Source: an uncultured Hyphomicrobiaceae bacterium | GTDB lineage: Bacteria > Pseudomonadota > Alphaproteobacteria > Rhizobiales > Methyloligellaceae | Direction of reading: 5' to 3' | NCBI GenBank assembly: GCA_964454415.1 | Contig: CAYVYD010000001.1 | Location: 1-40,251, forward strand | Length of the DNA stretch: 40,251 nt | Shown: in pieces, positions 4,872 through 40,251 of the stretch | Layout of the letters: every line of letters begins with the position of its first letter | How positions within the stretch are numbered: position 1 is the first letter of the stretch | Notes under the pieces: model-generated | The model's database searches: none | Told to the model about the DNA's origin: nothing | What the model saw: the letters and a program-made list of their open reading frames with translations, nothing else | Made by a program: the position numbers and the translations under genes

Positions 4872-5090
4872 TCAGGGCGGCATCTTCGCCAAGTCGAACA
4901 TGAGGGCGACGCGGAAGGAGAGCGCGATAACGATCCACAGCAGGAAAACGCCCCAGAAGATGGCGATGCCGTATTTATGGGCGAGCATCCGGTCGACCCA
5001 GGAGCGCTTCTCCTGACCCTCCAGCGGCGCGGGGGAAGCGGACTCTGACCGTCCCTCGCCCTTGGGCTTGACGTCGGGAACGCGCTTCAT
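4872..5090 (-). CDS. small membrane protein, hypothetical
   Basis: ORF 4872..5111, with the ATG at 5090 preferred (MKRVPDV...). It has a C-terminal hydrophobic segment (IAIFWGVFLLWIVIALSF) and high GC3. It lies 12-33 nt downstream of the ABC exporter stop on the same strand. Confidence 0.5.
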   Translation of the reverse strand: MKRVPDVKPKGEGRSESASPAPLEGQEKRSWVDRMLAHKYGIAIFWGVFLLWIVIALSFRVALMFDLAKMPP

Positions 5091-5123
5091 GGCTGGGAAG
5101 TTTGATCGCAATCCCGGCCGCGA

Positions 5124-6890
5124 TCAAGCCGGGGCTCGTCCCCGCGCCCGCTTCAATCGTCCCTCGCGCAGCTCGAACACCAGATCCGCGGCCTTGCGCG
5201 GCTGGTCGCGATGGGTCATCAGCAGCACCGTCGTCTTGCCTCGCAGCGCCTTCAAGGTGCCGAGGATCCTGGCCTCGGTTTCCTGGTCTAGCGCGCTCGT
5301 CGCCTCGTCCAGCAGCAACAGCCCGGGTCCGCGGGCAAGCGCGCGGGCGAGCGCGATGCGCTGGCGCTGACCGCCCGAAATCCCCTTGCCGCCCTCGCCG
5401 ACGACCCGCTCGTAGCCGCCCTCCATGGCGGCGATGAACTCATCCGCGCAGGCGAGCCGCGCCGCTTCCTCGACGGCGGCGGAATCCAGGGACTCGTCGC
5501 CGGCGCGGATGTTGTTGGCGATGGTGTCGTGGAACAGCAGGCTGTCCTGATCGACGTAGCCGATCGCCTTGCGCCAGGTCTCGGTCGGGATCTCGCGCAG
5601 GCTGCGTCCCCGCGCGATGATATCGCCCCCGTCGAGCTCGGTCAGGCCGAGGACGGCGTCGATCAGCGTCGTCTTGCCGGCGCCCGAGGGACCGGTGACC
5701 ACCGCGAAGGCGCCGGGCGGGATCTCGGCCGAGGCGCCCTCGATCACGGGCTCGCCGCCATAGCCGATCGCGACCTCGATCAGCTCGAGCCCGATCGGCC
5801 CGGTGAGCGCTTCGCCGGGCACCGGGCGGGTGTGCTCGCGCATCGCCGCCGTCTCCCGGGCGAGCTCCAGCGTCGAGGAGAAGGCGGGCAACAGGATGTT
5901 GAGCGAATGCAGCGCCTGTTGCAGCGTCGAGAGGCGCGGATAGAGTCTGGCGAACAGCGCCAGCACGACCAGCACCGCCGCCAGGTCGGGCGCCAGGGCG
6001 CCGGTTCCGAGGACGAGGGCCGAGATCAGGATGACCGGCGCGAACAGCTCGACGACCGCGCGCGAGAAGCCGGGATCGAAGATGTAATGGAAATAGCTCC
6101 GCTCGCGGCTCCGCGCCTCGGCCGCGAAGTCGCGGCGCGCCGCGCCTTCCAGGCCGAACACCTTCATCACCTTGATTCCGGCGACGTATTGGGTGATCAG
6201 CGCCGTCATCGACCCGTCCGCCTCGATCAGGTCCCGGCCCACCCTGTCGGCGTATTTGGCGAGCGGGCGCATGACGACGATCAGCACGAGCGCGGCCACG
6301 GCCAGGAACAGCGTGAGCCGCCACGAAATGACGAAGGCGAGCGCCGTATAGACGGCGATGAAGAACGCGGCACCCGTGAACACCATCAGATGGATGAAGG
6401 CGTTGGCCATCTTGTTGAGGATGTCGCCGGTCAGATTGTTGACCGCCTGGGCCATGGTGCGGTGCCGGAACAGCGCCCATTTGGCGGCGACGAGGCCGTC
6501 GAACTGCGCTTCGAGCCAAGCGCTGATATAGGCCGCCTGGCAACGGCCCGAGACGTATTGGGCCGCCAGGAAAATGGCGACCTGAAGGGCGACCGCCGCG
6601 ACGATCGCCACCGCCAGCACGGGAAGCGTCATGGGAAGACCGGCCCGGGCGGCGAGGCCTGCGACGAGCGCGGTCACCGGATCGCTGCCCGCCCCCTCGC
6701 CCCCCAGCCCGATCTCGCGCAGCAGCGGCAGCAGCAGCGCGACCGCCAGGCCCTCGAGCACGGCGGTGAGACCGGTGAGCGCGAACAGCGCGCCCGCCAG
6801 CCAGCCGAGCTTGGCGTAAATGTCGCGTATGAAGGAGACGATCAGCGGTCCGCCCGCCCTGTGGCCGCGGCGACTCCCGCCCGGCGGCAA
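5124..6890 (-). CDS. fused TMD-NBD ABC exporter (MsbA/PglK-like)
   Basis: The N-terminal ~330 aa form six-helix-type hydrophobic segments. The C-terminal NBD has Walker A GPSGAGKTT, signature ISGGQRQRIALARAL and Walker B LLLLDEATSALD. The start is a TTG at 6890 and is uncertain. Confidence 0.85.
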   Translation of the reverse strand: MPPGGSRRGHRAGGPLIVSFIRDIYAKLGWLAGALFALTGLTAVLEGLAVALLLPLLREIGLGGEGAGSDPVTALVAGLAARAGLPMTLPVLAVAIVAAVALQVAIFLAAQYVSGRCQAAYISAWLEAQFDGLVAAKWALFRHRTMAQAVNNLTGDILNKMANAFIHLMVFTGAAFFIAVYTALAFVISWRLTLFLAVAALVLIVVMRPLAKYADRVGRDLIEADGSMTALITQYVAGIKVMKVFGLEGAARRDFAAEARSRERSYFHYIFDPGFSRAVVELFAPVILISALVLGTGALAPDLAAVLVVLALFARLYPRLSTLQQALHSLNILLPAFSSTLELARETAAMREHTRPVPGEALTGPIGLELIEVAIGYGGEPVIEGASAEIPPGAFAVVTGPSGAGKTTLIDAVLGLTELDGGDIIARGRSLREIPTETWRKAIGYVDQDSLLFHDTIANNIRAGDESLDSAAVEEAARLACADEFIAAMEGGYERVVGEGGKGISGGQRQRIALARALARGPGLLLLDEATSALDQETEARILGTLKALRGKTTVLLMTHRDQPRKAADLVFELREGRLKRARGRAPA

Positions 6891-6947
6891 GGCCGCCGTT
6901 CATGGCGCAGCGAGGCGCTGCCCGCCTGCGGCCGGCCCACCGTCATC

Positions 6948-7676
6948 CTATCTGCCACGGCGCTGGCCGCCGCTCTGCCGCCGGACCAGCGAGGGCTCTT
7001 CCGCGTCGAACATCGGCGCCAGCTCGGAGGCATAGGGACGCAGCTCCTGGGCGATGATCCGCAGGCTCTTGCGGATCTCTTCCCTCCGCGCCGGCGTCAC
7101 GCGTTTGAGGGCCTCGGCGAATTCGACGATCGATTGGGAGGCCAGCCTGCTGACGTTTTCCGGCTTGGCGGCCTCCTTGAGCCGCGCCATTCCGAGATTG
7201 GCCGCGCGGATCCCGCTCAGCACCGGGATCATGGCCAAGGCGATCACCAGGATCACGACGACCGCAGCGATGCCTGCGAACCAGCTCCTCCCCGATGCCC
7301 GCCGGCGGTCCGCTTGGTCCTTCGGCAACGCCTCGGCCAGCGGCGCGCCCGGGGCTGCTTGTGGCACCGCGTCGGTCGGCGGCGCATCCGCCTTGTCCTG
7401 TTGGGCTGACTCGATCCCCTGTGCGGGCACTATCCGGTAGTCCGGCGCCGGGAACCCCGCCTCCGTCATCTTTTCCAGAACCGCCGATCTGAGCCTGATG
7501 AATTCGTTGTAGGCCTTGGTCAAATCGGCCTTGCTGACGGCAATTTCGAGCGCGGGATCGACGACGCTGTACAAGTTTCCGCGCTTCTCCACCTCGATCA
7601 ACACGGGAGGAATGCTGGATTCTTGCCGCTGCCTGCGCTTGGGCGCCGGCCTTTTCGCGTCCTTAGCAGCCCCCAT
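6948..7676 (-). CDS. hypothetical bitopic membrane protein
   Basis: 242-aa ORF with an ATG start, a basic N-terminus, a central TM segment (WFAGIAAVVVILVIALAMIPVL) and a helical C-terminal ~80 aa. It overlaps the upstream gene end by 14 nt. Confidence 0.6.
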   Translation of the reverse strand: MGAAKDAKRPAPKRRQRQESSIPPVLIEVEKRGNLYSVVDPALEIAVSKADLTKAYNEFIRLRSAVLEKMTEAGFPAPDYRIVPAQGIESAQQDKADAPPTDAVPQAAPGAPLAEALPKDQADRRRASGRSWFAGIAAVVVILVIALAMIPVLSGIRAANLGMARLKEAAKPENVSRLASQSIVEFAEALKRVTPARREEIRKSLRIIAQELRPYASELAPMFDAEEPSLVRRQSGGQRRGR

Positions 7677-10365
7677 TCGAGCCTCCCAAATTGATCACGT
7701 CGCTGAAATATTCGCGTCCCGCGCGCCGTGCGCTGACCGGGCGAACCGATACCACGATCCGGCCTGTCAGGGTCCGCGGCAGGGTTAGCCTCCTGACGCC
7801 GCTGACCTCGATCACCGGCTCGACGCGCTCCATGTCATTCCGGTCCGGCGGACGCGAACCGCACAACTCACCCCGCGTGTCGACCCGGTAAACCCGGACG
7901 ACCGACGCTTTTTCGGATTCGCCGTCCTGTTGGGCGTAATCGTAGCGGATCTGAACGGCCCTGTTTCCATTATTGGCGGGCGACACCTGGGTCTCGACAT
8001 GGCGGCCGGGCGCACGCGGCGTCAGGTCGCGCAAAAAGGGAGGCGCGGTCCAATCTAGCTTGATTATGGCCCAGGAATCCGACTCCTCCTTGTCGATGGC
8101 GAGGAGCTTGTGCCGGAACGGCCGCCACTCGTCGGATCTCGCCTCCTTCACCAGCCCCAGATTGCGGCAGCCGGGCAATGGATGACCCTGTAGCTGCCGT
8201 ATCGCCCTGACGGGAGTTGGATTGAGAAAGCAAACGAACAGGTCGGGCCGCCTATAGGACGGATTGGTCTTGGCGTCGGCGAGCCAGACGACGTGGCCGG
8301 AAAATATCGGCTCGAATCCCGATGCCGTTTGTTCGTAGCCGCCGGCCGCGAACCCCCAATCGGTGTAACCCCAACTGCCCGACTTCACGGCGAAGGGGAC
8401 GGCATAGGTGTTCGATACGATCGTGCTTCCCTCGAGCGGTTGTTGGGCCAATGCGTCGATCCAAGCAAATTGATTGGGCGGAAGCAGCAGCGCGCACGCC
8501 CCTTGCGCCCAAATCCAATGCAAACCCATCGCCGCGGCGGCGAACACACCGAATCCCCCCGCCGGACGCAACGCAACCCGCATCCGCCGCGCCAAGCCGG
8601 ATTGTCCCGCGATTTGCCCGATGATGCCTGCACGTTCGGAAAGTTCGCCGGCCGCCGCCAAGGTCACATAGATCGCCAAGGCGACGGCAGCGGCCACGTG
8701 CGCCACCAGGACGGTTTGGTCGCGGTCCAGATAGCCGCTCCAAACATAGCCGGGAAACAGGCCGCCCATGACGGCCACGGCGATCGCTCCCGAAGCGAAG
8801 AACCCATAAAGACGGCCCCAACCCCGGTCTCCGCGTTGCGGGTGCGGCGGCACCAGGATCGCCACGCACCAGAGCGCAATCGCCGCGACGATCGCGGCTC
8901 CCTGCAGCACGAACCTGCCCGGAGGGGCGAGCATTTCGAGCCATAGGATCTGCTGGGTGGGGTCGTAGAGGCCGCTCTCGATGACGCCCCACCAGAGGAG
9001 CGCGAGCAAGAACAGGGTGCAGCCGGTCATGTGTATCGTCGCCGCGCTTGCGTTCGGTCCGGTCGTCAGGCTGCGTTCGAGGACGCGGAAACCGGCAACA
9101 CCGATGAGAACGCCCATGGCGGCGCAAACCGCGGCCACGGCCTGCCAGTCGAGCCCCCCCAGAGTGGCACGCGCCGACCACAGATCGGAAAGCCACAGCA
9201 CCTGGAAGACGAGCAAACCGCTGAGGGCGGCTGCGGCGACCGAGATCACCGGCCTGTAACGTCCGATCGAGTCCCGCTCCTGCCAGCGGCGAACCGCCAT
9301 CGCCGTGGCGTTGCGTATCGCAAATCCCAGCAACGCCACCATCGTCATCAGCGTCACGAAAGGCGTGAGGGTTTGCAAATGCCATCGCACGAAGGACGGC
9401 CAGAAATGCTCCAGCACTCCATCGGTGCGGTTCGAGGCGATGTTGTAGAAGAAGGCGATATTCCTGTCGCCGTAGAACGCCTCGATCAGCGCTTGAGCCG
9501 GCGCGCCGCCTGCCGCGAAGTTGCGAGCGAAGAACGTGAATCTCGCATCCGTCAGCGCGTCTTCCCAGCCGAGATAGCCCACCACCTGAAATAATAGAAC
9601 GACGAGCGAAGCGACGGCGCCGAGCCCCATCGCGCCCCAGCCGAGCAACAGACGCCGCCAATCGCGGCGCAACCGCCAGGCGAGATAGAGCCCGGTCATG
9701 GTGGCGGTAAAGCTGACGAACGCGAATTCGTAATAAAACAGGAAGAGGCAGTTGACGAATATCGGAGGCAACCAGCGCCAATTTTTCGATTGCGCGTAGA
9801 GTTCGGCGGTCAGCAAACTCGAAAAGATGAAGAAATGAGTCCAGATCCGGTAGGTGTTGGCCTGCCACTGGGCGAAGTAAAGGTAATCGGTGATCAGCAC
9901 CAGACACGCCAACAGCGCGAAACGGTGACCTGCGCACGCCGTGAAGAACCGGAACGCCATGAAGACCACGGCAAGCCCGGCGGTAAACGTCGTAACGGTG
10001 ATCTGGCTCTCGATCGATCGCAGACCCAACAGGTGCAAAACCGCGGCGAACAGGCGCGGGACGTTGCCCTGATGGGTATGCACGAAGGGGTGAGCCTCGG
10101 CCGACGGGCTTGCCGCGTCGTCGGCAAGCCCGAAGCTTTTGGCCGGGCCGCGTTCGATCAGGTTCCTGGCGTGATTGAGCGTGGAGTAGGACTCGTTGTT
10201 GTCGAGCACATAGGGCTTGAAGTCGCCGGCATAGAGCAGGCTCGCATAGACGATGACGTAGACGCCGAGCAGGACGGTCAGGCAGGTGCGGGCATCGAGC
10301 TTCGTCCAGGCTGAAAACAATGGCGCTCCCATGGCTTGCCGCGCGAACTGAACAGTGCTGGACAT
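7663..10365 (-). CDS. large polytopic membrane protein (P900), candidate GT-C-type glycosyltransferase; paralog of 26114..28375 and 35951..37871
   Basis: 900-aa ORF with an ATG preceded by GGAG at a 9-nt spacing. About 630 aa contain many hydrophobic helices, followed by a ~270-aa soluble C-terminal region. The first loop carries DNNESY...HPFVHTH, a motif shared with two other genes in the window. The function is an inference. Confidence 0.75.
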   Translation of the reverse strand: MSSTVQFARQAMGAPLFSAWTKLDARTCLTVLLGVYVIVYASLLYAGDFKPYVLDNNESYSTLNHARNLIERGPAKSFGLADDAASPSAEAHPFVHTHQGNVPRLFAAVLHLLGLRSIESQITVTTFTAGLAVVFMAFRFFTACAGHRFALLACLVLITDYLYFAQWQANTYRIWTHFFIFSSLLTAELYAQSKNWRWLPPIFVNCLFLFYYEFAFVSFTATMTGLYLAWRLRRDWRRLLLGWGAMGLGAVASLVVLLFQVVGYLGWEDALTDARFTFFARNFAAGGAPAQALIEAFYGDRNIAFFYNIASNRTDGVLEHFWPSFVRWHLQTLTPFVTLMTMVALLGFAIRNATAMAVRRWQERDSIGRYRPVISVAAAALSGLLVFQVLWLSDLWSARATLGGLDWQAVAAVCAAMGVLIGVAGFRVLERSLTTGPNASAATIHMTGCTLFLLALLWWGVIESGLYDPTQQILWLEMLAPPGRFVLQGAAIVAAIALWCVAILVPPHPQRGDRGWGRLYGFFASGAIAVAVMGGLFPGYVWSGYLDRDQTVLVAHVAAAVALAIYVTLAAAGELSERAGIIGQIAGQSGLARRMRVALRPAGGFGVFAAAAMGLHWIWAQGACALLLPPNQFAWIDALAQQPLEGSTIVSNTYAVPFAVKSGSWGYTDWGFAAGGYEQTASGFEPIFSGHVVWLADAKTNPSYRRPDLFVCFLNPTPVRAIRQLQGHPLPGCRNLGLVKEARSDEWRPFRHKLLAIDKEESDSWAIIKLDWTAPPFLRDLTPRAPGRHVETQVSPANNGNRAVQIRYDYAQQDGESEKASVVRVYRVDTRGELCGSRPPDRNDMERVEPVIEVSGVRRLTLPRTLTGRIVVSVRPVSARRAGREYFSDVINLGGSNGGC

Positions 10366-10422: not shown

Positions 10423-11733
10423 CTACCGGGCCTTGTCGCGAGCGCCCACGCCCAGCGTCCGCAGCGCGCGATAGTAAACGTCCGTGAGTGGCTCCGATTG
10501 CGACCGCGCGCCGGTGTCGTGCATGCGTTCGGGGAGCGACTTGATCTCCCACCACCACGACCCAGCCGCGCCGTAAATGGTGAACAAAGAGACGAATCCG
10601 ACCGCCACGAGCGCCGCTTGCGTGGCGTTGCGCTCGCGCATGAATCGCATCGCCTTCACCGAGGCGGCGAAAATCGCCGTCGCCACCGCGACAACGATCA
10701 ACCGCGCTGCCAGTTGCACGAATACCGATTCAGGAGCCGAGAGCGAGGTTTCGGTGTGCGTCACGGCGACGAAGGCCATCGCGGCCGGCGTGAAGACCAT
10801 CGCCGCCAGAACGATGGCGCCCGTATCCACGGCCGGCATCAACTCGCGTGCGCCCAATGGCTGTCCGAATTGCCACGCCTGAGCCACCAGCGTCACGACC
10901 GCTAGCGCGACCACGCCCACCGCGAGCAACGCTTCGCCTTCGGCAACGATCCGCCATTGCCCCAGCGCCAACGCGGCGAGGGCAAGGGCGAACGCAAATC
11001 CCAGCCACCTCGACGAAACCTGGCCCCGTCTCAACGCCAAATCCATCACCGCGACACCGAAAAGCATCAATCCGCCGAGTGTCAAGTGAAACGCGATCGT
11101 CGCGGCCAGCAGGGCATAGCCCGCCTCCAAACGCCCGCTCCAGCGGTTGGCCAATACGGCCATGAAGATCAGCACCACCGTCGATTTAGGCCAGATGCTC
11201 AGCGGCGATAGCGCCTCTCCCGGGTCGACGGCCAGCACGATCAGGTTCAGCAAATTGTCCAGCCCGCCGAACGACATCAGATGATCGCTTCCCGAAGGAC
11301 CCGGCAGAAACCCGGTGAGGGCCGCGATGCTCACCGCGAGCGCGAAGGGAGCGTCCATTTTCGGCACCCGCCACAGACCACCGGTGGCAACGGCGATACC
11401 GATGACGAGAGGAATGGCCAGGCCGACGCCGATCGCCACGGTTAGATTCGCCGCAAAGAGCCGGGCCGCCGCATAGCCCGCGACCGCGGCGACAGGATAG
11501 TTTTTCGCCGAAAGCTCGCGCCGCCTGAGTTCCTGGGCCTGCTCCGGCACCGCGGTCGCATGTTGCCCGAGCGCGTGTTCGGCGCGCTCCGGCTCGAACC
11601 AGCTATATCCGATAAAGTGAATGTAGAAGACGTCCGACTTGGCGGTAAGCGCCGTGGAGAGATGGAACAGGCCCGCGGCTGCGGCCGTGACGATCGCGCA
11701 AATCAGGAAAGGTCTAAGGCGGAAAATTTGCAT
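10423..11733 (-). CDS. polytopic membrane protein (P436), hypothetical; possible Wzy/ligase-like role
   Basis: 436-aa ORF with an ATG start and roughly 10 hydrophobic segments. I recognise no diagnostic motif. Confidence 0.65.
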   Translation of the reverse strand: MQIFRLRPFLICAIVTAAAAGLFHLSTALTAKSDVFYIHFIGYSWFEPERAEHALGQHATAVPEQAQELRRRELSAKNYPVAAVAGYAAARLFAANLTVAIGVGLAIPLVIGIAVATGGLWRVPKMDAPFALAVSIAALTGFLPGPSGSDHLMSFGGLDNLLNLIVLAVDPGEALSPLSIWPKSTVVLIFMAVLANRWSGRLEAGYALLAATIAFHLTLGGLMLFGVAVMDLALRRGQVSSRWLGFAFALALAALALGQWRIVAEGEALLAVGVVALAVVTLVAQAWQFGQPLGARELMPAVDTGAIVLAAMVFTPAAMAFVAVTHTETSLSAPESVFVQLAARLIVVAVATAIFAASVKAMRFMRERNATQAALVAVGFVSLFTIYGAAGSWWWEIKSLPERMHDTGARSQSEPLTDVYYRALRTLGVGARDKAR

Positions 11734-13654: not shown

Positions 13655-14341
13655 TCAGCGGCTCTTGGGTCCTAATCCGATCGCGAGCAGGTAGTTGGCC
13701 ATCTTGTGGAAGCCCGTATGCACGACCTCGTCGTTCATGGCGAACATGCAGACCGACGAGAAGTGCCGCTCCATCACCGCCTTGAGGTCCGGCATCGACT
13801 TGCAGTTGACGTGACCGGCCTTGCTCTGGGGCGAGGCGTGGGGCTGGGATTCGAGCGACGGCATGCCGATGATGCAGGTGGCCTGCGGCGTCAGCGAGCG
13901 CGCGACGTTGCCCAGGAACCGGTCCTCCTCGGCGGGGGCTATGTGTTCCAGCACGTCGAGCGAATAGGCCGCGTCGTGAACGTCTTGCGTCGGGCCGGCG
14001 AGCATGTCGTGGACCCGGAAATCCACCGGCCACTTGTCGCAGGCCCGCGACGTCGCGTCCTCGATGAAGACCGGATCGAAGTCGACCGCCGTGACGGCCC
14101 CCGCCGCCTGGCGCACGATCCGGGTGCCGAAGCCGTCGCCGCAGCCGACCTCGAGGACCCGGCCCGCGCCCTCCAGCATCTTGGCCACGAATTTGTAGCG
14201 CGAAAGGGTGAAGACCAGCCGCTTGGGATCGTCATGCCAGGTCTGGCTCGTCATCAAGCCAAGCGATTCGAGGCCGCGTTCGCGCGCGTAGTCGACGCAG
14301 AACTGATATTGCGGTTCCTTGGTTTGCCTGTTCTTCGCCAT
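13655..14341 (-). CDS. class I SAM-dependent methyltransferase
   Basis: Motif I VLEVGCGDGFGT and post-I AVDFD, followed by SLDVLEHI. 228 aa. Confidence 0.8.
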   Translation of the reverse strand: MAKNRQTKEPQYQFCVDYARERGLESLGLMTSQTWHDDPKRLVFTLSRYKFVAKMLEGAGRVLEVGCGDGFGTRIVRQAAGAVTAVDFDPVFIEDATSRACDKWPVDFRVHDMLAGPTQDVHDAAYSLDVLEHIAPAEEDRFLGNVARSLTPQATCIIGMPSLESQPHASPQSKAGHVNCKSMPDLKAVMERHFSSVCMFAMNDEVVHTGFHKMANYLLAIGLGPKSR

Positions 14342-15979: not shown

Positions 15980-15994
15980 AAAACTCCCTCCGGC

Positions 15995-18216: not shown

Positions 18217-18217
18217 C

Positions 18218-19813: not shown

Positions 19814-20816
<1,003 letters not shown>

Positions 20817-32654: not shown

Positions 32655-35600
32655 CAAGCTTCTCCCTCGCGCGCCCGGCGCCGCAGGATCCAGCCCCCCA
32701 AGACGAACAGAAGGACCGCCAAAAGCTCGATCAGACGGGCCCGAGGCGCGGCCGAGAACGGCTCGAACCGCATCTGGAGGTGGCGCGTGCCCGCCGGCAG
32801 ACGCACGCCGCGCATCACCGCGTTTGTAGCAAAGACCGGGATTTCGCTTCCATCCGCGTAGGCCCGCCAGGAGGGATGGTAGAGCCCGTTGACGACGAGG
32901 AACCGCTGCCGGGAAGAGGGATCGACGTCGATGTCGATGACGTCGCCGCGATAGCGCGCCTTGAGCTTGCCGCCCGCATCGAAGCCATCGCTTTGTCCGC
33001 TAATCCCCTCGACCAGCGGATTGGTCAGCACGCTGTCGCGATGGCCGGCGAAGACCACTCCCCGCGCTTTCCCATCAAAAGCGTTCCATTCATCGCCCGA
33101 CAGCGAGAAACGTTTGATTTGCGAATGGGCCGAGCACCCGTGTTCGTTGCAGGCGCGCGCGCGCAAAAGCACCGATCCCGTCTGCGCCTGGAATGTCAGC
33201 ATCGCACTGCCCTGCCCGCGGCCGAATCGCGCCACTTCGGCGAAACGCTCCATCGAAGAAACGCGTCCCTCGATGATGAGTTCGACATCGTCATACGGCC
33301 GTATGGTCAATTGGTAGCCGCTCGCTCCATTTCGGGCCACCGATGAGCCGGCCAAGTGCGGCGGTGTAATACCCGGAATGGCCACCTCCACATGGATAGG
33401 CGCTCCCATCGGGGCGCACGTCGTCTTGTTGCACGCCAGCAGCCTGTACAGCCACTGGCTCGTCGGCGGCAATTCGGGATCGAGCCAGGCCATTGCCACT
33501 GGCCCGAGGATCGCGACGCGGTCGCCCTTGCCCTCCATCCATGCGTTCTGCTCGGAGCCGGCCGCCGCGGCCGCCTTTTGCCGGTAGATCTCGATCCGCT
33601 CGGTGCCCTTGGGTGCCGGTTTGCTCCAGCCGAGCAGGACGCCACCGCCATAGACCGCGGTCGCCTCCAGACCTATCGACGATCCTATTCTTGCCGTCGT
33701 GGCGGTCACCGGCGTCGCGGCGACCGGCGTGATCCGTTCGGCGAGATACAGGCGCGGAAGCGGCGCGACGGGGTTCTCGACGATGCGTGGAAACGCCTGA
33801 TCCGATCGCCCGCCCTTCCCGTTGAAGTAGAGCGCCTCGTCTAGCATGACCGCATATTTGACGTTGAGCATCGAGAGCAACGCGGCGGAGAGCTGTTCTA
33901 GCGACCCGAACGCGATCGAACGCAGTCTCACCACGCCGTCTGGCCAGCCCAGCGCTTGCAACCTCGCCGGCACGCCGGCACCATATCCCCCGAGCTGGCG
34001 CAGTCTCCAGAACTGCGAAATATGCGGCGAGTTGTTGCTCGGGAAGGCTTCGTCGTCGGCGATCAACACGCTTCGATATCGCTCGGCCTCGAGCCGCCCG
34101 CGCAGCCGCTCCACTTGAGCGTCCGCTGGTGGGCGCAGCCGATCGCGCTCGACGGTCAGATAGTTGTTCGTTTTGAAAGGAATCGGGGCCGTCCTGGTGT
34201 GACTGCCGGCCAGCTTGAAGTGGCCGTATGTAACGGCCTCTCCGATGGCGAAACCGCCCATCAGCACGACGGCGCACGCCCCGGCGCTCAGCCCCATGAC
34301 CTTGCCCCTCGCGGCGGCCAGAACGCAGGCGAGAAAAACCGCCAGCGTCAGCCCGACCTCAACCGATACGATCGGGCTGAGCCGGTAGTTTGAGATCTTG
34401 ATCGACCAGGCATCGACGCCCACCGCCTGTTCGATGAGGTTTCCGTTGATGAGCCAGGCCAGGCAAAGACCAGCCGCAAAGAGAGCCGCGCCCAGTAGCG
34501 GCCCCATCCCCCGCCCGCTCTCCCGTGGCGACATCGGGCGTTGGTAATTTTCGCAATAAACAGCGAACAGGCTTGCCAGCGACAGCGTCGCCAGCAGCGA
34601 CAGCCGCGAATGGGTGAAGTCCACCTTGGCGAAGGCCAGGTAGAGCCCATAACGGGCCTCCTCCACGAGCACGAGGATCAGGACTGTCAACAACGCCCCC
34701 AGGTGAAACGCCGTATCGCGCGGCCTGGCCGGACGGTGCGCGGAGCGGGTGCTGCCTTCTGCCGCGGTGCCCGGCAACCACCCCAACCGCTTCGCAATTG
34801 CGGCGAGCGCGGCGATGCCGACAAGGGCGGCGAAGATCGTGAGGAAGATGGCCCCGGACCGTGATATTCCGGGAAACAGGTGCCAGCCCGGCACGTAAAG
34901 GAGGTCGACCCGCGAAAACGCCATGCCGCAAATGGCCAGGAACATTAGGGCGGCGGCGAGCTCGCCCCTCGATCGTGGCGTCATGATACCCGCTATCACC
35001 ACGAAAATGGCCATACTCGAACCCAGGAGCTGCAGGCCTTCATGCAGGTTGAGCGAATTGCCCAGTTCCCTTCCCTCGCCCATCGAGCGCCCGAGAAATC
35101 CCTCATGCACCAATCGGGCGATTTCCGAATAATCAGTGTAGTGAAATGTTTGCGTTCGAAAGAGCTGCTGGAAATCGCCGGCCACCGATATCAGGCGGGG
35201 AGCGGCGAACACCAGCGCCACGAGAACGGCGGCCGCGAAAACGGTGACGGGACGCTGGAAGTCGCGCTCGCCGGCCCGCAGCGCGGCCGCCCCGCGATAG
35301 AGGCTGTAGGCTCCCAGATAGATCATCACATAGGCGGCTTCCTGAAGAAAACCGTAGAAACACAGCACCGTCAGGATCGCAGCCAAACCGGCATAGGCGA
35401 GCAGCGCCTGGCTCTGTGCCTTTCGGATCGCCAAAAGCCCCAGCGGCAGCAAGATGAGCGTCATTTGCGCGGAATCGACTTGAGCGGCCCGGTGCAAGGA
35501 GTAGACCGAGAGGCCGTAGACGACGGCGCCCGCAACCGCCGGAAGGCCGGGCCGCGCGAGGTCGCTGATGTAAAGATAGGCGGAGACGCCCGCCAGGGCG

Positions 35601-35944
35601 GTGAGCGCGGCTGAGACGTAACCCAACACGCGAAAAATCTCGCCGCGCTCGAACAGCGCCAGAAAATAGGGAATGGGATCGGGGCCCGGGTTCATCCAAT
35701 GCAGGCCCGCCATCGAGAAGCCGCCGAACATGCCCTCGTTCCAGAGCGGAACCCGCCCCAGGGTGCGAATTGAATCGTATTCGAACAAACGGAGGTTGAG
35801 ATACGAGTTGAGCCGGTCGGAATCGCCGATGAAGGTGCTGACGCCGAACAGATGGTCGCCGAACACGATCAGCACCGCTGCGGCGATCACCCCGCCCGCG
35901 AGCCAACCGTATCTCCGTTCGCGTCGCCGTGCGCTGACTGTCAT
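32654..35944 (-). CDS. YfhO-family-like giant membrane protein (P1096) with an inserted pair of FN3-like modules
   Basis: The N-terminal GDSDRLNSY...RVPLWNEGMFGGFSMAG and the C-terminal NGLYHPSWRAYADGSEIPVFATNAVMRGVRLPAGTRHLQMRFEP, followed by a terminal TM, match the YfhO layout. There are roughly 14 hydrophobic segments. Confidence 0.75.
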   Translation of the reverse strand: MTVSARRRERRYGWLAGGVIAAAVLIVFGDHLFGVSTFIGDSDRLNSYLNLRLFEYDSIRTLGRVPLWNEGMFGGFSMAGLHWMNPGPDPIPYFLALFERGEIFRVLGYVSAALTALAGVSAYLYISDLARPGLPAVAGAVVYGLSVYSLHRAAQVDSAQMTLILLPLGLLAIRKAQSQALLAYAGLAAILTVLCFYGFLQEAAYVMIYLGAYSLYRGAAALRAGERDFQRPVTVFAAAVLVALVFAAPRLISVAGDFQQLFRTQTFHYTDYSEIARLVHEGFLGRSMGEGRELGNSLNLHEGLQLLGSSMAIFVVIAGIMTPRSRGELAAALMFLAICGMAFSRVDLLYVPGWHLFPGISRSGAIFLTIFAALVGIAALAAIAKRLGWLPGTAAEGSTRSAHRPARPRDTAFHLGALLTVLILVLVEEARYGLYLAFAKVDFTHSRLSLLATLSLASLFAVYCENYQRPMSPRESGRGMGPLLGAALFAAGLCLAWLINGNLIEQAVGVDAWSIKISNYRLSPIVSVEVGLTLAVFLACVLAAARGKVMGLSAGACAVVLMGGFAIGEAVTYGHFKLAGSHTRTAPIPFKTNNYLTVERDRLRPPADAQVERLRGRLEAERYRSVLIADDEAFPSNNSPHISQFWRLRQLGGYGAGVPARLQALGWPDGVVRLRSIAFGSLEQLSAALLSMLNVKYAVMLDEALYFNGKGGRSDQAFPRIVENPVAPLPRLYLAERITPVAATPVTATTARIGSSIGLEATAVYGGGVLLGWSKPAPKGTERIEIYRQKAAAAAGSEQNAWMEGKGDRVAILGPVAMAWLDPELPPTSQWLYRLLACNKTTCAPMGAPIHVEVAIPGITPPHLAGSSVARNGASGYQLTIRPYDDVELIIEGRVSSMERFAEVARFGRGQGSAMLTFQAQTGSVLLRARACNEHGCSAHSQIKRFSLSGDEWNAFDGKARGVVFAGHRDSVLTNPLVEGISGQSDGFDAGGKLKARYRGDVIDIDVDPSSRQRFLVVNGLYHPSWRAYADGSEIPVFATNAVMRGVRLPAGTRHLQMRFEPFSAAPRARLIELLAVLLFVLGGWILRRRAREGEA

Positions 35945-35950
35945 GCCCGT

Positions 35951-37871
35951 CTAACGTTGAGGCTTGGTTGTCGCAAGATCGAATATCTTGACAAGCCCGT
36001 TGTCGAGCACGAGCGGATAGTTTCGCGACAGATTGCTCTCGAGTTGCGCCATGCAGCTCTCGTCCAAACGGTTCTACTCGGTGAGGGTATTGGCCGGCAG
36101 GCAATCGGCGAAACCCGGAAACAGGCGCTTGTCCGAGAAATAAAAGAAATAGCGCGTGCGTTGCGCGCGCCAGTAATCGACACGCCGCATGAAGCCGACC
36201 TTGCATGCGTCCAGCGACACCGCGCCGCCCGCGTCCACGGAGCTGGGACCGCAAACGCCGATCCCGGCGCCTGGGTCAGAAAGCCGACCAATGCGACATT
36301 GATATTGGTCATGAAAAGCTCACCGCGAAAGGTCTTGATCTGTTCCAAGGGTCGCCACGTGGGCTGCTTGGCCATCCAGAGCGTAAAGCGCAGCGTGGCC
36401 ATTGCCGGCCGCAGTGCGGTTCGAGCGAATTGAACGAGCGAGACCGCCAGCAGGACGGCAAGAAACAATCCCGCCACAGTGCGTGCGGCCTGGTGCGGAT
36501 ACCCCGCCCATGCCGTCGAGCCTCGCCCCCTGCACCTGCCCAAAGCCGGGCGCGCAGGTCGATGGCGGCCACGGCGGCGATCCTCACGAAATGGTAAAGG
36601 CCGAGGCTCAAAACGGCAGCGACCCCCAAACCCAAGACCATGATGTTGGCTCCAAATCCGGTGGGCGTGACCTCCTGGGCGAAAGCGGGAAACAGCAGGA
36701 TCGGCGCCCACGCCGTGCCGATGCCCCAAATCGCAAAGCGAAAAAACAGTGATGCCGTTCGGGCTGGGCCCGCTGTGCCCAACTGCTGCCGGTCGCCCGG
36801 GGGCGCACGAGCGAACGAATCCCCCAAAACCCCGATGAGGAGACTGATTGCACCGATCGCGGCGACGGCGGCCCCTCCAGGAACCGTCAGGCTGTTGCGA
36901 AGTTGGGCGCGGACGACGTGCCAGGAAATTTCGTGCGCGCCGTGATGCACCACGTGAATTGACCGGTAGAAGGCGCTCATCTCCTCCTGGCTGGGGGTTC
37001 CCGTAATGCGGTTGGAGAGCGTGAGCCACATTTCCTGCAGGAAGACCTCCGGGCCCAAATAAAGAAAATTTTGCAGGAGATGGAGCCCGATTCCGGCGGC
37101 GAAGGCGCACCCCATCGCGATCACCTCCCGGGGCCGGATCGGCAGAAGCTGCGTCAGGAACAGGAAGACCCAGCAGAACATGACGCCGGAGAGCGCCGAA
37201 TATTCGATGTAGAAGGTGGAGACGAGTGCAACGCCAAAGGCAGTGGCGAAATAGGCCATCCGTCCGGTCCTGAGATACCAATCGAACATCAGCAGCGGCA
37301 GGAACGCCAACAGCGGATAGAGCGCATAGATCTGCCGCTCCATGAAATTGGCGACGTTCCAGGCGCCGAGCAGGAGGACGGCAAGCCCCGCCAGCTTGAA
37401 ACCGTGACGCTCCAACAGCGCTCTGGCGAACAGGAAATAGACCCCCAGGCCGGCGAGCGCGACGAGGCCCAGCACGGTCCGCACGACGGCGTAGTCGCCA
37501 TCGGAGATTTTTAAAATCAGCGCCGTGATCAGTTCCGGCGCCGGTGGCATGTGATTGTAGACGTAAGGGTGGTCGAGCGGATCGGCGCTGCTCGCGAAAT
37601 CCTGCAAAAGCCCGGTGACGAAAAATCCGTACTCCAGGTAATTCCGCGCGGTGTTGAAAATGTAGGCGGCCTCCTCGACCAGCGAGAACGGCGTGAACAG
37701 CTCCGACTCGAAAGTTATCTTCAAATGCAGAATGAAGATCGCCACCACCAGGCACAGCGCCACGGCGGCGATCGTCCAATCCGCGATCCCAACCGCGGTT
37801 CGCGCCACGATGACGCTGCGCGCCTCGGCGGACTTGGGCCCGTCACCCCCGTTGCCTGACGCTGCCGCCAT
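35951..37871 (-). pseudogene. third paralog of the P900/P753 family (P520); membrane domain intact, C-terminal domain disrupted
   Basis: The annotatable ORF 36309..37871 (520 aa) ends in ~80 Arg/Cys/Trp-rich residues. The family-like sequence continues in a second frame (TVAGLFLAVLL...WMAKQPTWRPLEQ...GFLTQAPGSAFAV, about 36500-36240). It then continues in a third frame (VDAGGAVSLDACKVGFMRRVDYWRAQ...), which is interrupted by an in-frame TAG at 36074-36076. That frame ends ...NGLVKIFDLATTKPQR with a stop at 35951-35953. Sequencing errors cannot be excluded. Confidence 0.5.
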
Positions 37872-37881: not shown

Positions 37882-38385
37882 TTACCCTCCCGGCCCCAGC
37901 AGCCACAGCGATTTGAGCCAATCGAACCCCCGCGCCACCGCCTTGCCGCGCCGCGTCAAGCGGTAACCGGAGCCTGCGGGCGCGATGTAGCCGCCCGCGG
38001 CCATGCCGGCGAGCCGCGCTTCGATAAAGGCCGGCGAGGTGAACGTCGCGGCCAGTCTTTCCTCCTCGACATGACCGTCCGGACGGCTGGCGAGTAGCCG
38101 CAACGTTTCGACTGAGAGCGAATGGGTCAGCGTGTAGATCAAGGGCATGTAGAGGACGACGAGACCCAGGAATGCGAGTTCGCCCCACAGGACCGCCGTG
38201 ATTGTTCCACCAACGCCCGGCGGCGCGCCGGCCGCCGCGACGACGGCGATGAGGAGGGCGAATGCCGGGACCAGCTTGAGGGCGAGGGGTCCGCGCTCGA
38301 TGCCGCGGGTAACGCGCGGCGACAGGAGATGCAGCCCAGCGAACAGGGCGAAGCAGAGGACCCCGATGGCGGCGGCGGCCGTCAC
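37882..38385 (-). CDS. small membrane protein with a C-terminal winged-helix-like domain (P167)
   Basis: 167 aa with three N-terminal hydrophobic segments, then ...ARLAGMAAGGYIAPAGSGYRLTRRGKAVA, a wHTH wing-like pattern. It is a paralog of the upstream gene and overlaps it as ATGA. Confidence 0.65.
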   Translation of the reverse strand: MTAAAAIGVLCFALFAGLHLLSPRVTRGIERGPLALKLVPAFALLIAVVAAAGAPPGVGGTITAVLWGELAFLGLVVLYMPLIYTLTHSLSVETLRLLASRPDGHVEEERLAATFTSPAFIEARLAGMAAGGYIAPAGSGYRLTRRGKAVARGFDWLKSLWLLGPGG

Positions 38386-38939
38386 TCTTCAGCCGCCTCT
38401 CGTTCCGGCCGGCCCGGCCCCAACATCGCTTGCGCCCGCCCGAGCGCCCTGGCCAGCCGCGAACCCTTCGGCGTGATCGCGACGTCGCCTCCCCGCCGTT
38501 CGATCAGGCCGAGGCCGCGCATACCAGCCAAACGCTTCTCATACATCCAGGCAAGCCCGTGCCCCGCGCCGTAGGATTTTGCGATATCCGCTGCCGACAT
38601 AGCACGCGGTTCGGCATCCAGCATATCGATCAGAATGCGCAGGGAAAGTCCCCGCTCGGCCAGGTTGTAGAGTTGCAGCAGACCGCCCCAATAGCCGGAA
38701 ATGTAGAGAAAAACCGCGAACGCCAGATCGCAGGCGGCCGGGGCCGCGAGCACGTCTTGCGGCAGCATCCACAGATCGTCCGGGGTCGCGAGGTGGAGCG
38801 CGACGAGGCTCGCCAGCCCGGCTCCAAACAGGCCGGCGAGCGATCGGAAACGATGCTTCCCGGAGATGCCGCGCAACAGGCCCGTCATCGCTGCCGCGGT
38901 CCCCAATCCCATTGCGGCGGCCAACAGCAGCGCTTTCAT
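38382..38939 (-). CDS. small membrane protein with a C-terminal winged-helix-like domain (P185)
   Basis: 185 aa with N-terminal hydrophobic segments, then LRILIDMLDAEPRAMSAADIAKSY...RLAGMRGLGLIERRGGDVAITPKGSRLARAL. Confidence 0.65.
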   Translation of the reverse strand: MKALLLAAAMGLGTAAAMTGLLRGISGKHRFRSLAGLFGAGLASLVALHLATPDDLWMLPQDVLAAPAACDLAFAVFLYISGYWGGLLQLYNLAERGLSLRILIDMLDAEPRAMSAADIAKSYGAGHGLAWMYEKRLAGMRGLGLIERRGGDVAITPKGSRLARALGRAQAMLGPGRPEREAAEE

Positions 38940-38952: not shown

Positions 38953-39930
38953 TCACTCCGACGGGGTCTCCGCTTCCACCCGCCCGGCCGGCCTGCGCGC
39001 CAGCCACACGCCGCAGCCCACCAGGCTGAAGAGCACCGAAAGCGCGCCGAACAGGACCGAGACGAGAAAAGCGGGACCGGCCTGGACGCCCATCAGCCCG
39101 AAGGCGACCACCATCAGGCCCTCGCGCACGCCCCAGCCGGCGACCGTGATCGGGATCATGGCGAGCTCCATCACCAACGGCACCACCAGAATGCAGGCGA
39201 ACAGACTCACCTGGATTCCCAAATCGGCGAACAGGACGTAGATCATCGCCGCGTTGAGGACGTTGACGGCGAGACCGAGCGCGACCGCCCCCAGCGTCTT
39301 CAAGGGCGCGGTGAAGGAGACCCGCAGGACGGACACCAGATCCAACAGCAGCGGAATGACGGCGACAGCCTTCAGGCGCGCTGTGAGTTTCTTTTCGAGA
39401 CCCACGCGGCCCCGCAGAAAGGCGAACACAAACAGCATCGCGATCGCCGCAGCTCCGCCCAAGGCCACCGCCAAAAGCACAGTCCGCTTGAGGGGACTGT
39501 CCATCAAGGCGAATGACCAGGGCAGGAAGGCCAGGATCAACAGATGGTTGGCGATGATGCCGGTCAGCCGGTCGAGCAGGACGCCGCTCGCCGCGTTCCG
39601 GATGCCGATGCCCTCGCGCTTCAGCTCCCACAGACGGGCGGCGTCGCCGCCGAGGAAAGAGAGGAAGGTTTGCGAGAAGAACAGGCCCACCAGCGAGACC
39701 GGCACCGCCTCCTTCAAGCTCAATCTTTCCTTCAGCGTCGCCATCACCAGCGACAATCGCCCCGAGGCGATTGCCTGCTGGATCAGAAGCAGCAGACCGA
39801 AGCCCGCCAGACCGGCGGCGCTGAAGGCGGCGGCGTTCTCGAAGGTTTCGCCGAAATCGATCCGTTGCGAGATCAGCCAAAGCAACAGCGCGGAAAACGC
39901 GATTTTTGCGATCAGCGCGAGACGGTTCAC
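38953..39930 (-). CDS. UPF0104 / LPG-synthase-TM family 'flippase-like' membrane protein
   Basis: 325 aa with about 8 TM segments. The family-typical pattern is ...RLSLVMATLKERLSLKEAVPVSLVGLFFSQTFLSFLGGDAARLWELKREG...VLLDRLTG. Confidence 0.75.
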   Translation of the reverse strand: MNRLALIAKIAFSALLLWLISQRIDFGETFENAAAFSAAGLAGFGLLLLIQQAIASGRLSLVMATLKERLSLKEAVPVSLVGLFFSQTFLSFLGGDAARLWELKREGIGIRNAASGVLLDRLTGIIANHLLILAFLPWSFALMDSPLKRTVLLAVALGGAAAIAMLFVFAFLRGRVGLEKKLTARLKAVAVIPLLLDLVSVLRVSFTAPLKTLGAVALGLAVNVLNAAMIYVLFADLGIQVSLFACILVVPLVMELAMIPITVAGWGVREGLMVVAFGLMGVQAGPAFLVSVLFGALSVLFSLVGCGVWLARRPAGRVEAETPSE

Positions 39931-40018
39931 GGGTTCAACATCGCCGGCTTGTTACCCCCGCGCCCGCCCTGCGGTCATGCCGTTCGCCGATGGCGTTCGA
40001 GTTGGGACGCGCATGTCT

Positions 40019-40048
40019 TGACACCGTTTCAAGCTACCACCTAACTGG
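40019..40048 (+). promoter_or_regulatory. possible sigma70-like promoter for the plus-strand GT2 gene
   Basis: TTGACA at 40019-40024 with a weak -10 candidate CTAACT/TAACTG at 40042-40048 (17-18 nt spacer). Low information content. Confidence 0.25.
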
Positions 40049-40108
40049 CATCACCATGTTCCCGCCGTCCTGCCGCTGGGGCGCAGGGACACGCATGCGA
40101 TCAACTGT

Positions 40109-40251
40109 ATGGCAAATATCCGAGGCGAAATCATCCCTCCTTCGAAGCCAACGATCGAAGTCACCTTCGCCATCGCCGCCTTGAACGAGGAACGGTTGAT
40201 CGCCGACTTCGTGACGCAGGCCCATGCGACCGTGGCACCCCTGCTCGACCG
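40109..40251 (+). CDS. family 2 glycosyltransferase, 5' fragment (runs off the window)
   Basis: The ATG at 40109 opens MANIRGEIIPPSKPTIEVTFAIAALNEERLIADFV..., a typical GT2 N-terminus (beta1-NEE). The frame has high GC3 and stays open to the window end. It is absent from the ORF track because no stop is reached. Confidence 0.5.
   Translation, partial: MANIRGEIIPPSKPTIEVTFAIAALNEERLIADFVTQAHATVAPLLD

Follow-up and report, generated by a model that had tools for sequence, protein, structure and literature searches.

The window analysed here, the 40,251 nucleotides of contig CAYVYD010000001.1 from an uncultured Hyphomicrobiaceae bacterium, is the whole contig, and most of it is taken up by a glycan locus. 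Four housekeeping genes at positions 52–4665 encode RpiA, an aldehyde dehydrogenase, a HAD phosphatase and a Leu/Ile/Val-type periplasmic binding protein according to Pfam, and tRNA-Val(CAC) lies at 4753–4828. All that lies behind this tRNA is one locus of about 35 kb with about 30 glycan-related genes, which is cut at its far end at 40251. The switch from housekeeping to sugar genes behind the tRNA, noticed in an earlier sequence-only reading of this DNA, is borne out by the gene map. The sequence is 66% G+C, and reading frames were picked by third-position G+C content (GC3); several gene starts (GT2a, GmhB-like, GmhA-like, E1 alpha) were corrected against homologues. We consider it probable that the locus encodes a system which glycosylates outside the cytoplasm, from a lipid carrier, with a modified heptose; the enzyme activities, the lipid donor and the product are all predicted. 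Central to this proposal are the large membrane proteins.

All six integral membrane proteins of 436–1096 residues that had been counted before are present at the sizes given (900, 436, 753, 540, 1096 and 520 residues; named here M900, M436, M753, M540, M1096 and M520). Five of them have no Pfam or NCBIfam family even at E≤1. Glycosyltransferases of the GT-C class are difficult to spot from their sequences, and families continue to be added, as GT136 was in 2024. M900 (7663–10365, minus strand) has about 12–13 transmembrane (TM) helices and a beta-rich periplasmic C-terminal domain. Its AlphaFold (AF2) model, with a predicted local distance difference test score (pLDDT) of 86.5 and a predicted TM-score (pTM) of 0.87, was compared with the PDB by Foldseek, where STT3 is the best match (E 3.5e-4; TM-score 0.44–0.47 on the target) and AglB, ArnT, EmbA/B/C, DPY19, ALG9 and AftA are among the others. 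Transporter-fold matches (HpnN, MurJ, pyrophosphatases) reach probabilities of at most 0.25 and TM-scores of about 0.1. The only matches at high probability outside GT-C are short, local ones of Ig/FN3 type to the C-terminal domain, and the C-terminal 260 residues form beta-rich Ig/FN3-like modules in the model. The conserved C712 and C733 of this domain fit a periplasmic location.

Between TM helices 1 and 2 of the M900 model sit two further helices, residues 57–72 and 101–112. The loop after TM1 carries a net negative charge and the N-terminus a net positive one. An alignment of 38 sequences gives the family motif in this loop as P51-Y-V-x-D55-N-N-E58 ... G79-L-x-D82-E ... H92-P ... H98, in which D55, E58, D82 and H98 are invariant and E83 nearly so. 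The loop with D55-x-x-E58 and D82 is the likely catalytic site. No Pfam family covers M900; its 58 relatives among 5.8 billion clusters are all annotated as 'hypothetical' and are free of glycosyltransferase Pfam domains. Searching the PDB by sequence and by profile, with M900, M753, M1096 and the alignment profiles A1, A2 and A3 as queries, returned nothing meaningful. On its modelled fold, M900 is predicted to be a GT-C-fold glycosyltransferase of an unannotated family.

Two further proteins of the window belong with M900. M753 (26114–28375, plus strand) is a paralogue over its N-terminal 300 residues or so (phmmer 1e-9), followed by a C-terminal domain of about 300 residues; it has no Pfam family and retains D82, P93 and H98 in alignment A4. 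M520 (open reading frame (ORF) 36309–37871, minus strand) is the third paralogue, at phmmer 1e-9 to 1e-10. The three proteins have their N-terminal 300 residues or so in common by phmmer and alignment A4, and D82 is kept in all of them. Because they are paralogues of M900, M753 and M520 may be taken for putative GT-C enzymes by homology. The remains of the M520 gene extend over 35945–37871. The last 100 or so residues of the ORF are rich in Arg, Trp and Cys and appear to be out of frame (window 35945–36600), and three-frame translation of the 364 nucleotides downstream of the ORF finds protein-like stretches in two other frames and an in-frame stop. M520 is probably a pseudogene frameshifted in its 3′ third, or else a mis-assembly in this contig of a metagenome-assembled genome (MAG).

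M540 (28362–29957, plus strand; 540 residues as an ORF, 531 as called) is predicted to represent a second unannotated family of GT-C fold. Its AF2 model (pLDDT 91.4, pTM 0.92) matches STT3, Pmt4 (TM-score 0.48), AglB, PglB, ALG9, AftD and DPY19, and its layout resembles that of M900, polytopic with a helical insert after TM1. Within the family, which has 101 representatives among 1.84 billion, E44 and D91 vary hardly at all and D202/E203 not at all; a relevant Pfam match was found in 0 of the 37 members checked. M1096 (32654–35944, minus strand) has about 12 TM helices, an extracytoplasmic region of about 500 residues and a C-terminal TM helix. It matches Pfam YfhO (PF09586) at E 7.7e-11, with 41.5 bits against a gathering cut-off of 28.5, the match being limited to residues 90–268, or positions 75–251 of the 835 in the profile. 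A weak NCBIfam match is to PgfM2. Homologues of M1096 occur in L006, L010, L013, L014, L016, L029 and L049 (L-numbers are labels of related loci that hold an M900-family gene).

Between them, the two models match STT3, AglB, ArnT and Pmt4 at a Foldseek probability of 1.0, and transporter folds at no more than 0.3, with TM-scores of at most 0.2 (MurJ about 0.2 and about 0.1). Among the 50 best Foldseek matches of either model there is no WaaL-, Wzy- or SEDS-type protein. The comparison with GT-C folds that had been suggested for these proteins thus came out on the side of GT-C enzymes and not of WaaL/Wzy-type or MOP proteins. A profile–profile comparison of A3 with A1 gave a weak colinear signal (probability 18%, E 1.3e-3). 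The motif WWD or W[WYF]DxG, corresponding to the WWDxG of oligosaccharyltransferases, is found in none of the six membrane proteins. We regard five of the six polytopic proteins as predicted GT-C-type enzymes of at least three distinct families, the fold being modelled for M900 and M540 only. The donor would be a sugar linked to polyprenyl (di)phosphate, because of the fold and of the neighbouring GT2 and flippase-like genes.

The occurrence of this arrangement elsewhere was surveyed by scanning one genome per species, with co-occurrence counted within 10 kb. The M900 family was found in 47 loci, with hosts spanning at least 10 phyla. Alphaproteobacterial hosts include Tardiphaga robiniae, Bradyrhizobium liaoningense, Skermanella aerolata and a Stellaceae MAG; beta- and gammaproteobacterial hosts include Polynucleobacter and Legionella; others belong to Opitutaceae, Gemmatales, Acidobacteriota, Thermodesulfobacteriota, Rokubacteria, Chloroflexota and Bacillota. 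Monoderm lineages, which have no lipopolysaccharide (LPS), are among them (Bacillota, Chloroflexota, Alicyclobacillaceae), and the acceptor is therefore unlikely to be specific to LPS. At least one homologue of the window's sugar genes lies near the M900-family gene in 33 of the 47 loci. A GT2 of either type present in the window accompanies the family in 22/47 loci, and UPF0104 in 8/47. Since five GT-C-type genes are gathered in 35 kb and the same partnership is met across phyla, the pattern is not one of chance. A literature search found no paper on an orthologous locus.

The sugar genes are better conserved than the GT-C genes that they accompany. Median identities are 62% for the HldE-like, 66% for the dehydratase-like and 64% for the GmhA-like protein, 70% for E1 beta, 58% for MT1 and 60% for MT2, and 48–70% overall, against 36% for the M900-family GT-C. 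Whole operons recur in genomes of 35–66% G+C. For instance, a betaproteobacterial MAG has the order GmhA-GmhB-transaldolase-SDR-dehydratase-HldE-GFO-...-methyltransferase-M900like (SDR, short-chain dehydrogenase/reductase), and in Tardiphaga and Stellaceae the sugar block is followed by a methyltransferase, a short GT2, an M900-like gene, UPF0104 and E1 alpha/beta. Such recurrence points to a horizontally mobile cassette, as judged from gene order and identity. The GT2 partner in most loci is a soluble protein of about 240–290 residues that corresponds by homology to the GT2 half of GT2-SDR in the window; its gene often lies directly upstream of the GT-C gene. In L013 and L034, the closest relatives, the entire fusion is found along with s167 and s185. 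More than one ORF is matched by the M900-family profile in 16 loci, some of the matches being fragments of split genes, and the M540 family recurs in four of these 16. The locus of the cultured and experimentally tractable B. liaoningense (L005/L006; GCA_977007305.1, 2688525–2711839) has the same sugar block, a 1104-residue M900-family protein, 572- and 316-residue proteins of no Pfam family, and DUF6044, DedA/VTT-domain and YfhO-like proteins.

The sugar to be transferred can be approached through its predicted synthesis genes. A GmhA-like SIS isomerase (23191–23775, minus strand), a GmhB-like HAD phosphatase (22661 to about 23194, minus) and an HldE-like bifunctional enzyme (18218–19813, minus; Pfam CTP_transf_like at 32–123 and PfkB at 198–487) are candidates for heptose activation, and a transaldolase (21865–22620, minus) scores above the cut-off of TIGR02134. 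The four ADP-heptose domains (GmhA, GmhB and the two of HldE, the latter matching NCBIfam rfaE domains II and I) are matched at E 1e-12 to 1e-40, all under the NCBIfam cut-offs. The domain order of the HldE-like enzyme is the reverse of that in enterobacterial HldE, with the nucleotidyltransferase N-terminal and the PfkB kinase C-terminal, and this order is kept in 11 related loci at 54–64% identity (L002–L006, L012, L015, L034, L040, L044, L048). Genes fitting the heptose chemistry that the sequence-only reading had attached to the locus are found there, three of the four proteins matching below cut-off.

Tailoring enzymes surround these genes, all on the minus strand. An NDP-sugar (nucleoside diphosphate sugar) 4,6-dehydratase-like SDR (19810–20820) and a second SDR epimerase/reductase (20817–21818), both assigned by Pfam and NCBIfam, have a median identity of 61–66% (range 24–72%) to homologues in 15 loci each. 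An RmlD-like reductase/epimerase (15092–15979), an NDP-sugar dehydrogenase (15995–17305; above the cut-off of NCBIfam NDP-sugDHase) and a GFO/IDH/MocA oxidoreductase (17278–18228), each recognised by Pfam, are kept together as a block in related loci. The methyltransferases comprise an FkbM-family protein (11752–12582; Pfam Methyltransf_21, and above the NCBIfam fkbM_fam cut-off) and three class-I enzymes dependent on S-adenosylmethionine, namely MT1 (13655–14341) and MT2 (14409–15095), found by Pfam and 54–72% identical in 13 related loci each, and MT3 (31749–32657; Pfam Methyltransf_23), with a 52% identical copy in L013.

A pair resembling the E1 component of pyruvate dehydrogenase (PDH) is encoded on the plus strand, with an alpha subunit at 23977–24993 (Pfam E1_dh) and a beta subunit at 25024–26058 (Pfam Transket_pyr and Transketolase_C); NCBIfam PDH E1 models match both below cut-off. 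The pair has a median identity of 61–70% (range 38–74%) in 14–15 related loci, most of which lie at 61–74%. In the Plm8/Plm9 and avilamycin systems, a pyruvate-derived C2 branch is added to 4-keto sugars (PMC4802897), and by analogy the E1-like pair may carry out a thiamine-dependent transfer of a C2 branch onto a 4-keto sugar. The presence of such a pair within a sugar locus suggests a C2-branched sugar comparable with paulomycose or eurekanate. The combination of heptose genes with an enzyme for C2 branching is a hint that the sugar is branched and of higher carbon number, like yersiniose, erwiniose or caryophyllose. An identity of the sugar block with the bradyrhizose operon of photosynthetic Bradyrhizobium was considered and dropped, being neither supported nor excluded; the genome scan matches for the M900 family include B. 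liaoningense and no photosynthetic Bradyrhizobium.

Two complete GT2 proteins are candidates for the handling of the activated sugar, and the expectation of a polyprenyl-phosphate GT2 fares differently with each of them. GT2-SDR (29970–31730, minus strand; 586 residues) combines Glycos_transf_2 at 18–142 with adh_short at 297–480. The best PDB match of its GT2 domain is the Dol-P-Man (dolichol-phosphate-mannose) synthase 5mlz (3e-9), with ArnC and GtrB next, and its NCBIfam matches to PgfS, Dol-P hexose transferase, AglJ and ArnC are weak and far below cut-offs. The full fusion is also encoded in L013 (1572–3323) and L034 (20820–22175), and short GT2s homologous to its GT2 half adjoin M900-like genes in 17 loci. 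For this protein the expectation is weakly supported, and it is a candidate synthase of a lipid-phosphate-sugar donor with a fused reductase/epimerase. For GT2a (12564–13607, minus; 347 residues, Pfam Glycos_transf_2) the expectation is not supported. Its best PDB matches are chondroitin synthase, GalT1, TarS and SpsA, with Dol-P-Man synthase, ArnC and GtrB absent from the matches, and it looks like an ordinary Leloir GT2 of glycan-extending type. Neither protein has a TM helix. The start of a further GT2-like gene (40109–40251, plus strand), divergent from UPF0104 and cut by the contig end, has a translation including IEVTFAIAALNEE, and is weakly matched by the short GT2 of L012 (41% identity over 34 residues).

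Proteins that could carry a lipid-linked sugar across the membrane are encoded as well. An ABC half-transporter of the MsbA/PglK/ABCB type (5124–6890, minus strand; 588 residues) has Pfam ABC_membrane and ABC_tran domains and PDB matches to MsbA (1e-47) and PglK/WlaB (2e-46); NCBIfam matches to HepA, CydD, MsbA and PglK are all far below cut-offs. A 52% identical copy lies at the same position in L003, and the gene is present in 3 of the 47 loci. A protein of the UPF0104/LPG_synthase_TM family, that of the MprF flippase domain, is encoded at 38953–39930 (minus; Pfam 4.5e-32, above threshold), and a sequence search of the PDB found no match to it. Homologues 30–40% identical stand beside GT2 and M900-like genes in 8 loci. 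The UPF0104 family is predicted, not proven, to flip glycolipids made by glycosyltransferases (PMC12713373). Both the exporter and the flippase-like protein had been named from the sequence and are recognised by Pfam, the exporter by its PDB matches as well. We regard the ABC protein as a candidate for the flipping or export of a sugar or glycan on its lipid, and the UPF0104 protein as a candidate flippase. Searches with Pfam and NCBIfam found no GtrA-, EamA- or SMR-type flippase among the window ORFs.

M436 (10423–11733, minus strand) is an orphan polytopic protein of about 10–11 TM helices. Even a profile search retrieves no more than nine clusters out of 5.8 billion, and each of them comes from a close relative of the locus; there is no Pfam match at E≤10, no PDB match and no profile–profile match to A1 or A3. 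The gene always lies between those of GT2a and M900, in the window as in L002, L003 and L009. Beside GT2a-like and M900-like genes stands either M436, in these four, or UPF0104, in L011, L046 and L051, seemingly in mutual exclusion, which in a small sample hints at a flippase role for M436. It is possibly a flippase or a sixth glycosyltransferase.

Several smaller membrane proteins accompany the large ones. The single-pass protein p242 (6948–7676, minus strand; 242 residues, one TM helix), whose gene start overlaps the end of the M900 gene by 14 nucleotides, has no Pfam or NCBIfam family. Homologues 24–39% identical, in distant taxa, are encoded directly after M900-like genes (L003, 12642–13295; L011, 12181–12849) or beside UPF0104 (L017, 3857–4489; L026, 3872–4432), and p242, a conserved accessory protein, may be a subunit of the GT-C. 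The paralogues s167 (37882–38385, minus) and s185 (38382–38939, minus) each have 3 TM helices and a C-terminal domain of about 80 residues with a very weak winged-helix-like Pfam match. The pair adjoins the full GT2-SDR fusion in L013 (3337–4399) and L034 (about 19767–20823), and possibly represents flippase subunits or regulators. Between tRNA-Val and the ABC gene, a 72-residue ORF (4872–5090, minus; GC3 0.86) encodes one hydrophobic helix, a single-pass membrane protein; the related loci yielded no homologue of it, and its membership in the glycan locus is uncertain.

The genes are arranged in four transcription blocks. The first comprises 19 genes on the minus strand from GmhA-like (23775) down to the ABC exporter (5124), and the second E1 alpha, E1 beta, M753 and M540 on the plus strand (23977–29957). 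UPF0104, s185, s167, M520, M1096, the methyltransferase and GT2-SDR make up the third, on the minus strand from 39930 to 29970, and the first 47 codons of the divergent GT2-like gene at 40109 are the fourth. With homologue-corrected starts, a divergent intergenic region of about 200 nucleotides (23776–23976) separates GmhA-like from E1 alpha; a promoter and terminator scan of 23600–24100 found none, including no sigma-70-like promoter. The membrane-protein genes of the locus have a G+C content of 0.60–0.65, against 0.67–0.71 in the housekeeping and sugar genes. This lower G+C, the tRNA border and the identity of typically 50–70% among sugar genes across phyla suggest that the glycan locus was acquired horizontally, its other border lying beyond the contig end. 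In the 127-kb relative L003, prophage-like genes (15112–17902; Rad52/DUF968, Sipho_Gp157 and an HTH protein) come directly after the ABC exporter, so the border of the locus differs between genomes.

Components of the canonical surface-polysaccharide pathways were looked for throughout. Searches with Pfam and NCBIfam gave no match to Polysacc_synt/MOP, Wzy_C, Wzz, ABC2_membrane, Bac_transf or Glycos_transf_4 in any mapped ORF, and none to Wzy_C or Polysacc_synt even at E≤1–10. The statement of the sequence-only reading that no MOP-family Wzx, PCP/Wzz, ABC-2 Wzm/Wzt pair or WbaP/WecA-type transferase could be recognised therefore stands after profile scans of all window ORFs, which also assign none of the large membrane proteins to Wzy, Wzx or ligase families. 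The only ABC protein of the window is a fused type-IV MsbA-like half-transporter, not a Wzm/Wzt permease with a separate ATPase. The 10-kb flanks of L011, L012, L013, L015 and L026 contain no genes for Wzx, Wzy, Wzz, an initiating phosphoglycosyltransferase or ABC-2 components; these five flanks hold housekeeping genes or further large proteins of no Pfam family.

From the family assignments, a sequence of reactions can be proposed. The transaldolase would supply sedoheptulose-7-phosphate, from which the GmhA-, HldE- and GmhB-like enzymes would make a nucleotide-heptose. Tailoring by the 4,6-dehydratase-like SDR, the other SDRs, the GFO oxidoreductase, the NDP-sugar dehydrogenase, the four methyltransferases and the PDH-E1-like enzyme would then yield a sugar that is likely deoxygenated and methylated, and possibly C2-branched. 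A soluble GT2, for which GT2-SDR is the best candidate, would load this sugar on polyprenyl phosphate at the cytoplasmic face, and the fused SDR domain may act on a keto-sugar or on the lipid-linked sugar. The lipid-linked donor would be flipped by UPF0104, by the MsbA/PglK-type ABC protein, or by both, and M436 or s167/s185 may assist or substitute. M900, M753, M520, M540 and M1096 would finally pass the sugar on to periplasmic acceptors; each of these five GT-C-type proteins has an extracytoplasmic domain of its own. They could either add the sugar to a glycan or protein that has its origin elsewhere, or assemble an oligo- or polysaccharide on their own. The bolder version, in which the locus and its relatives would be a self-contained route that builds an entire oligo- or polysaccharide from a branched and methylated derivative of heptose at the outer face of the cytoplasmic membrane, with successive GT-Cs of hitherto unrecognised families drawing on polyprenyl-phosphate monosaccharides, seems to us rather doubtful.

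Several points weigh against the extracytoplasmic heptose system as proposed. The Foldseek E-values (3.5e-4 and 5e-3) and TM-scores (0.3–0.48) are modest; they speak for membership of the superfamily and assign no family. GT2a resembles glycan-extending GT2s, and it is the sole GT2 within reach in the closest loci, L002, L003 and L009; neither complete GT2 has the TM helices typical of GtrB, ArnC and CsbB. The window encodes no flippase of the GtrA/SMR type, and UPF0104 is a flippase by prediction (PMC12713373). The substrate could be a related phosphosugar, since the matches to GmhA, GmhB and HldE are below cut-off. The contig stops inside the locus, so that the genes past 40251 are unseen.

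Other explanations of the same genes must be weighed. PglK flips glycans linked to undecaprenyl diphosphate, as does Wzk of H. pylori, and the locus might work likewise, with GT2a and unseen partners building such a lipid-linked oligo- or polysaccharide in the cytoplasm, the ABC protein flipping it and M900 transferring it en bloc to a protein or lipid acceptor. The ABC protein matches PglK/WlaB at 2e-46 and its gene shares one operon with GT2a, M436, M900 and p242, an arrangement kept in L003; moreover, GT2a resembles extending enzymes and the top Foldseek matches of M900 and M540 are STT3 and AglB. Against such a transfer, the WWDxG-type motif is missing from all six proteins, the C-terminal domain of M900 is an Ig/FN3-like module and not the periplasmic domain of an oligosaccharyltransferase, and an initiating phosphoglycosyltransferase was found neither in the window nor in the related flanks. 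One GT2 is insufficient for the synthesis of a repeat unit, and the ABC gene is present in only 3/47 loci, compared with 22/47 for the short GT2. We hold this explanation to be unlikely.

Still less likely is that an ordinary O-antigen or capsule cluster is before us, with divergent Wzy, WaaL and Wzx among the membrane proteins and the initiating transferase and exporter past the contig end. Wzy and WaaL are generally known to be so divergent that profile searches often overlook them, M436 has a Wzy/Wzx-like size and helix count, and the contig does end within the locus. However, neither the relaxed profile searches nor the 50 best structural matches per model brought up any such protein (MurJ has a probability of about 0.2), related modules are flanked by housekeeping genes (Lon, ManC, AraC, formamidase, DAO) and not by the components in question, and the M900 family also lives in monoderms that have no LPS. 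A heptose glycolipid as the end product, made by soluble glycosyltransferases and UPF0104 in the manner of GpgSDF or HexSDF while the GT-Cs serve elsewhere, is to our mind the least probable of these explanations. Operons of a glycosyltransferase and UPF0104 that make glycosylated phospholipids are documented (PMC12713373), and the two complete GT2s are free of TM helices, as is the cytoplasmic GpgS. Nevertheless, the sugar genes are tied most tightly to the GT-C genes, in 33/47 loci against 8/47 for UPF0104; five GT-C genes would be left without explanation; and all characterised GT-Cs use lipid-phosphate-linked donors, as is established (PMC11127046).

The extracytoplasmic heptose system that we prefer has relatives among known systems. 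The likeness to ArnC/ArnEF/ArnT, GtrA/B/C, CsbB/GtcA/YfhO and the mycobacterial systems, first drawn from the sequence, is supported by the profile and structure searches. Several GT-Cs with extracytoplasmic domains of the carbohydrate-binding type also act in mycobacterial arabinan and mannan synthesis, in which decaprenyl-phosphate-arabinose is made by DPPRS, DprE1 and DprE2 (the latter an SDR) and used by AftA–D and EmbA–C. Emb, AftA and AftD are among our structural matches, and in both cases modification of the sugar may take place on the lipid carrier. The window differs in having no UbiA-type phosphoribosyltransferase and another donor sugar, polymerisation by its GT-Cs is only hypothetical, and the hosts are mostly diderm Proteobacteria, with Verrucomicrobiota (Opitutaceae), Chloroflexota and Bacillota besides. 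STT3, AglB and PglB with PglK are alike in fold and in the company of an MsbA/PglK-type ABC gene in the same operon, and differ by WWDxG, by their C-terminal domain and by a PglC/WecA-type initiator, the TM-scores to them being 0.3–0.47. With the Gram-positive YfhO/PgfM proteins (PF09586), the locus shares M1096, which passes the Pfam threshold and weakly resembles PgfM2, and GT2-SDR, which weakly resembles PgfS; yet the M1096 match is partial, the protein has an extra domain of about 500 residues and a C-terminal anchor, and the host is an alphaproteobacterium.

Three-component extracytoplasmic glycosylation is already established as a concept (PMC11127046). In the Gtr, Arn, CsbB and GT136 systems a sugar is loaded on undecaprenyl phosphate inside, flipped by a flippase and transferred by a GT-C outside, and the same division of labour would apply here. 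The GT136 enzyme of Citrobacter youngae, part of a PPPRS/MATE/GT136 system for pentofuranose with an auxiliary epimerase, has a helical mini-domain and the catalytic D31/E34 after TM1, and its C-terminal binding module is rich in beta structure (PMC11127046). M900 is alike in its mini-domain after TM1, its beta-rich C-terminal domain and the D-x-x-E spacing, and the SDR fused to GT2 recalls the auxiliary epimerases of pentofuranose systems. The differences are several: the sugar would be heptose-derived and not a hexose, 4-amino-4-deoxy-arabinose (Ara4N) or pentofuranose; Pfam has no model for the GT-C families, and five GT-C genes replace one; the GT2s have no membrane anchor and one is fused to an SDR; UPF0104 and an MsbA-type ABC protein stand in the place of a GtrA, SMR or MATE flippase; and backbone-synthesis genes are not nearby.

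What is new in the locus, then, are at least two predicted GT-C families of no Pfam model, the M900 type and the M540 type, while the overall three-component strategy is known. The families would provide annotation handles for about 150 clusters of 'hypothetical' membrane proteins and may offer new enzymes for glycoengineering. The M900 type is genetically linked with a conserved pathway, spread by horizontal transfer, for an as yet uncharacterised sugar derived from heptose, and cultured carriers (Tardiphaga robiniae Vaf-07, Bradyrhizobium liaoningense, Skermanella aerolata KACC 11604, Polynucleobacter sp. IMCC 30228) make the sugar and its attachment site testable. The locus thereby bears on whether Gram-negative bacteria build glycans outside the cytoplasm from lipid-monophosphate donors beyond the decoration by single side chains. 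If the assembly of a whole glycan by successive GT-Cs were true, it would be a Gram-negative counterpart of mycobacterial arabinan synthesis and a fourth route beside the Wzy-, ABC- and synthase-dependent pathways.

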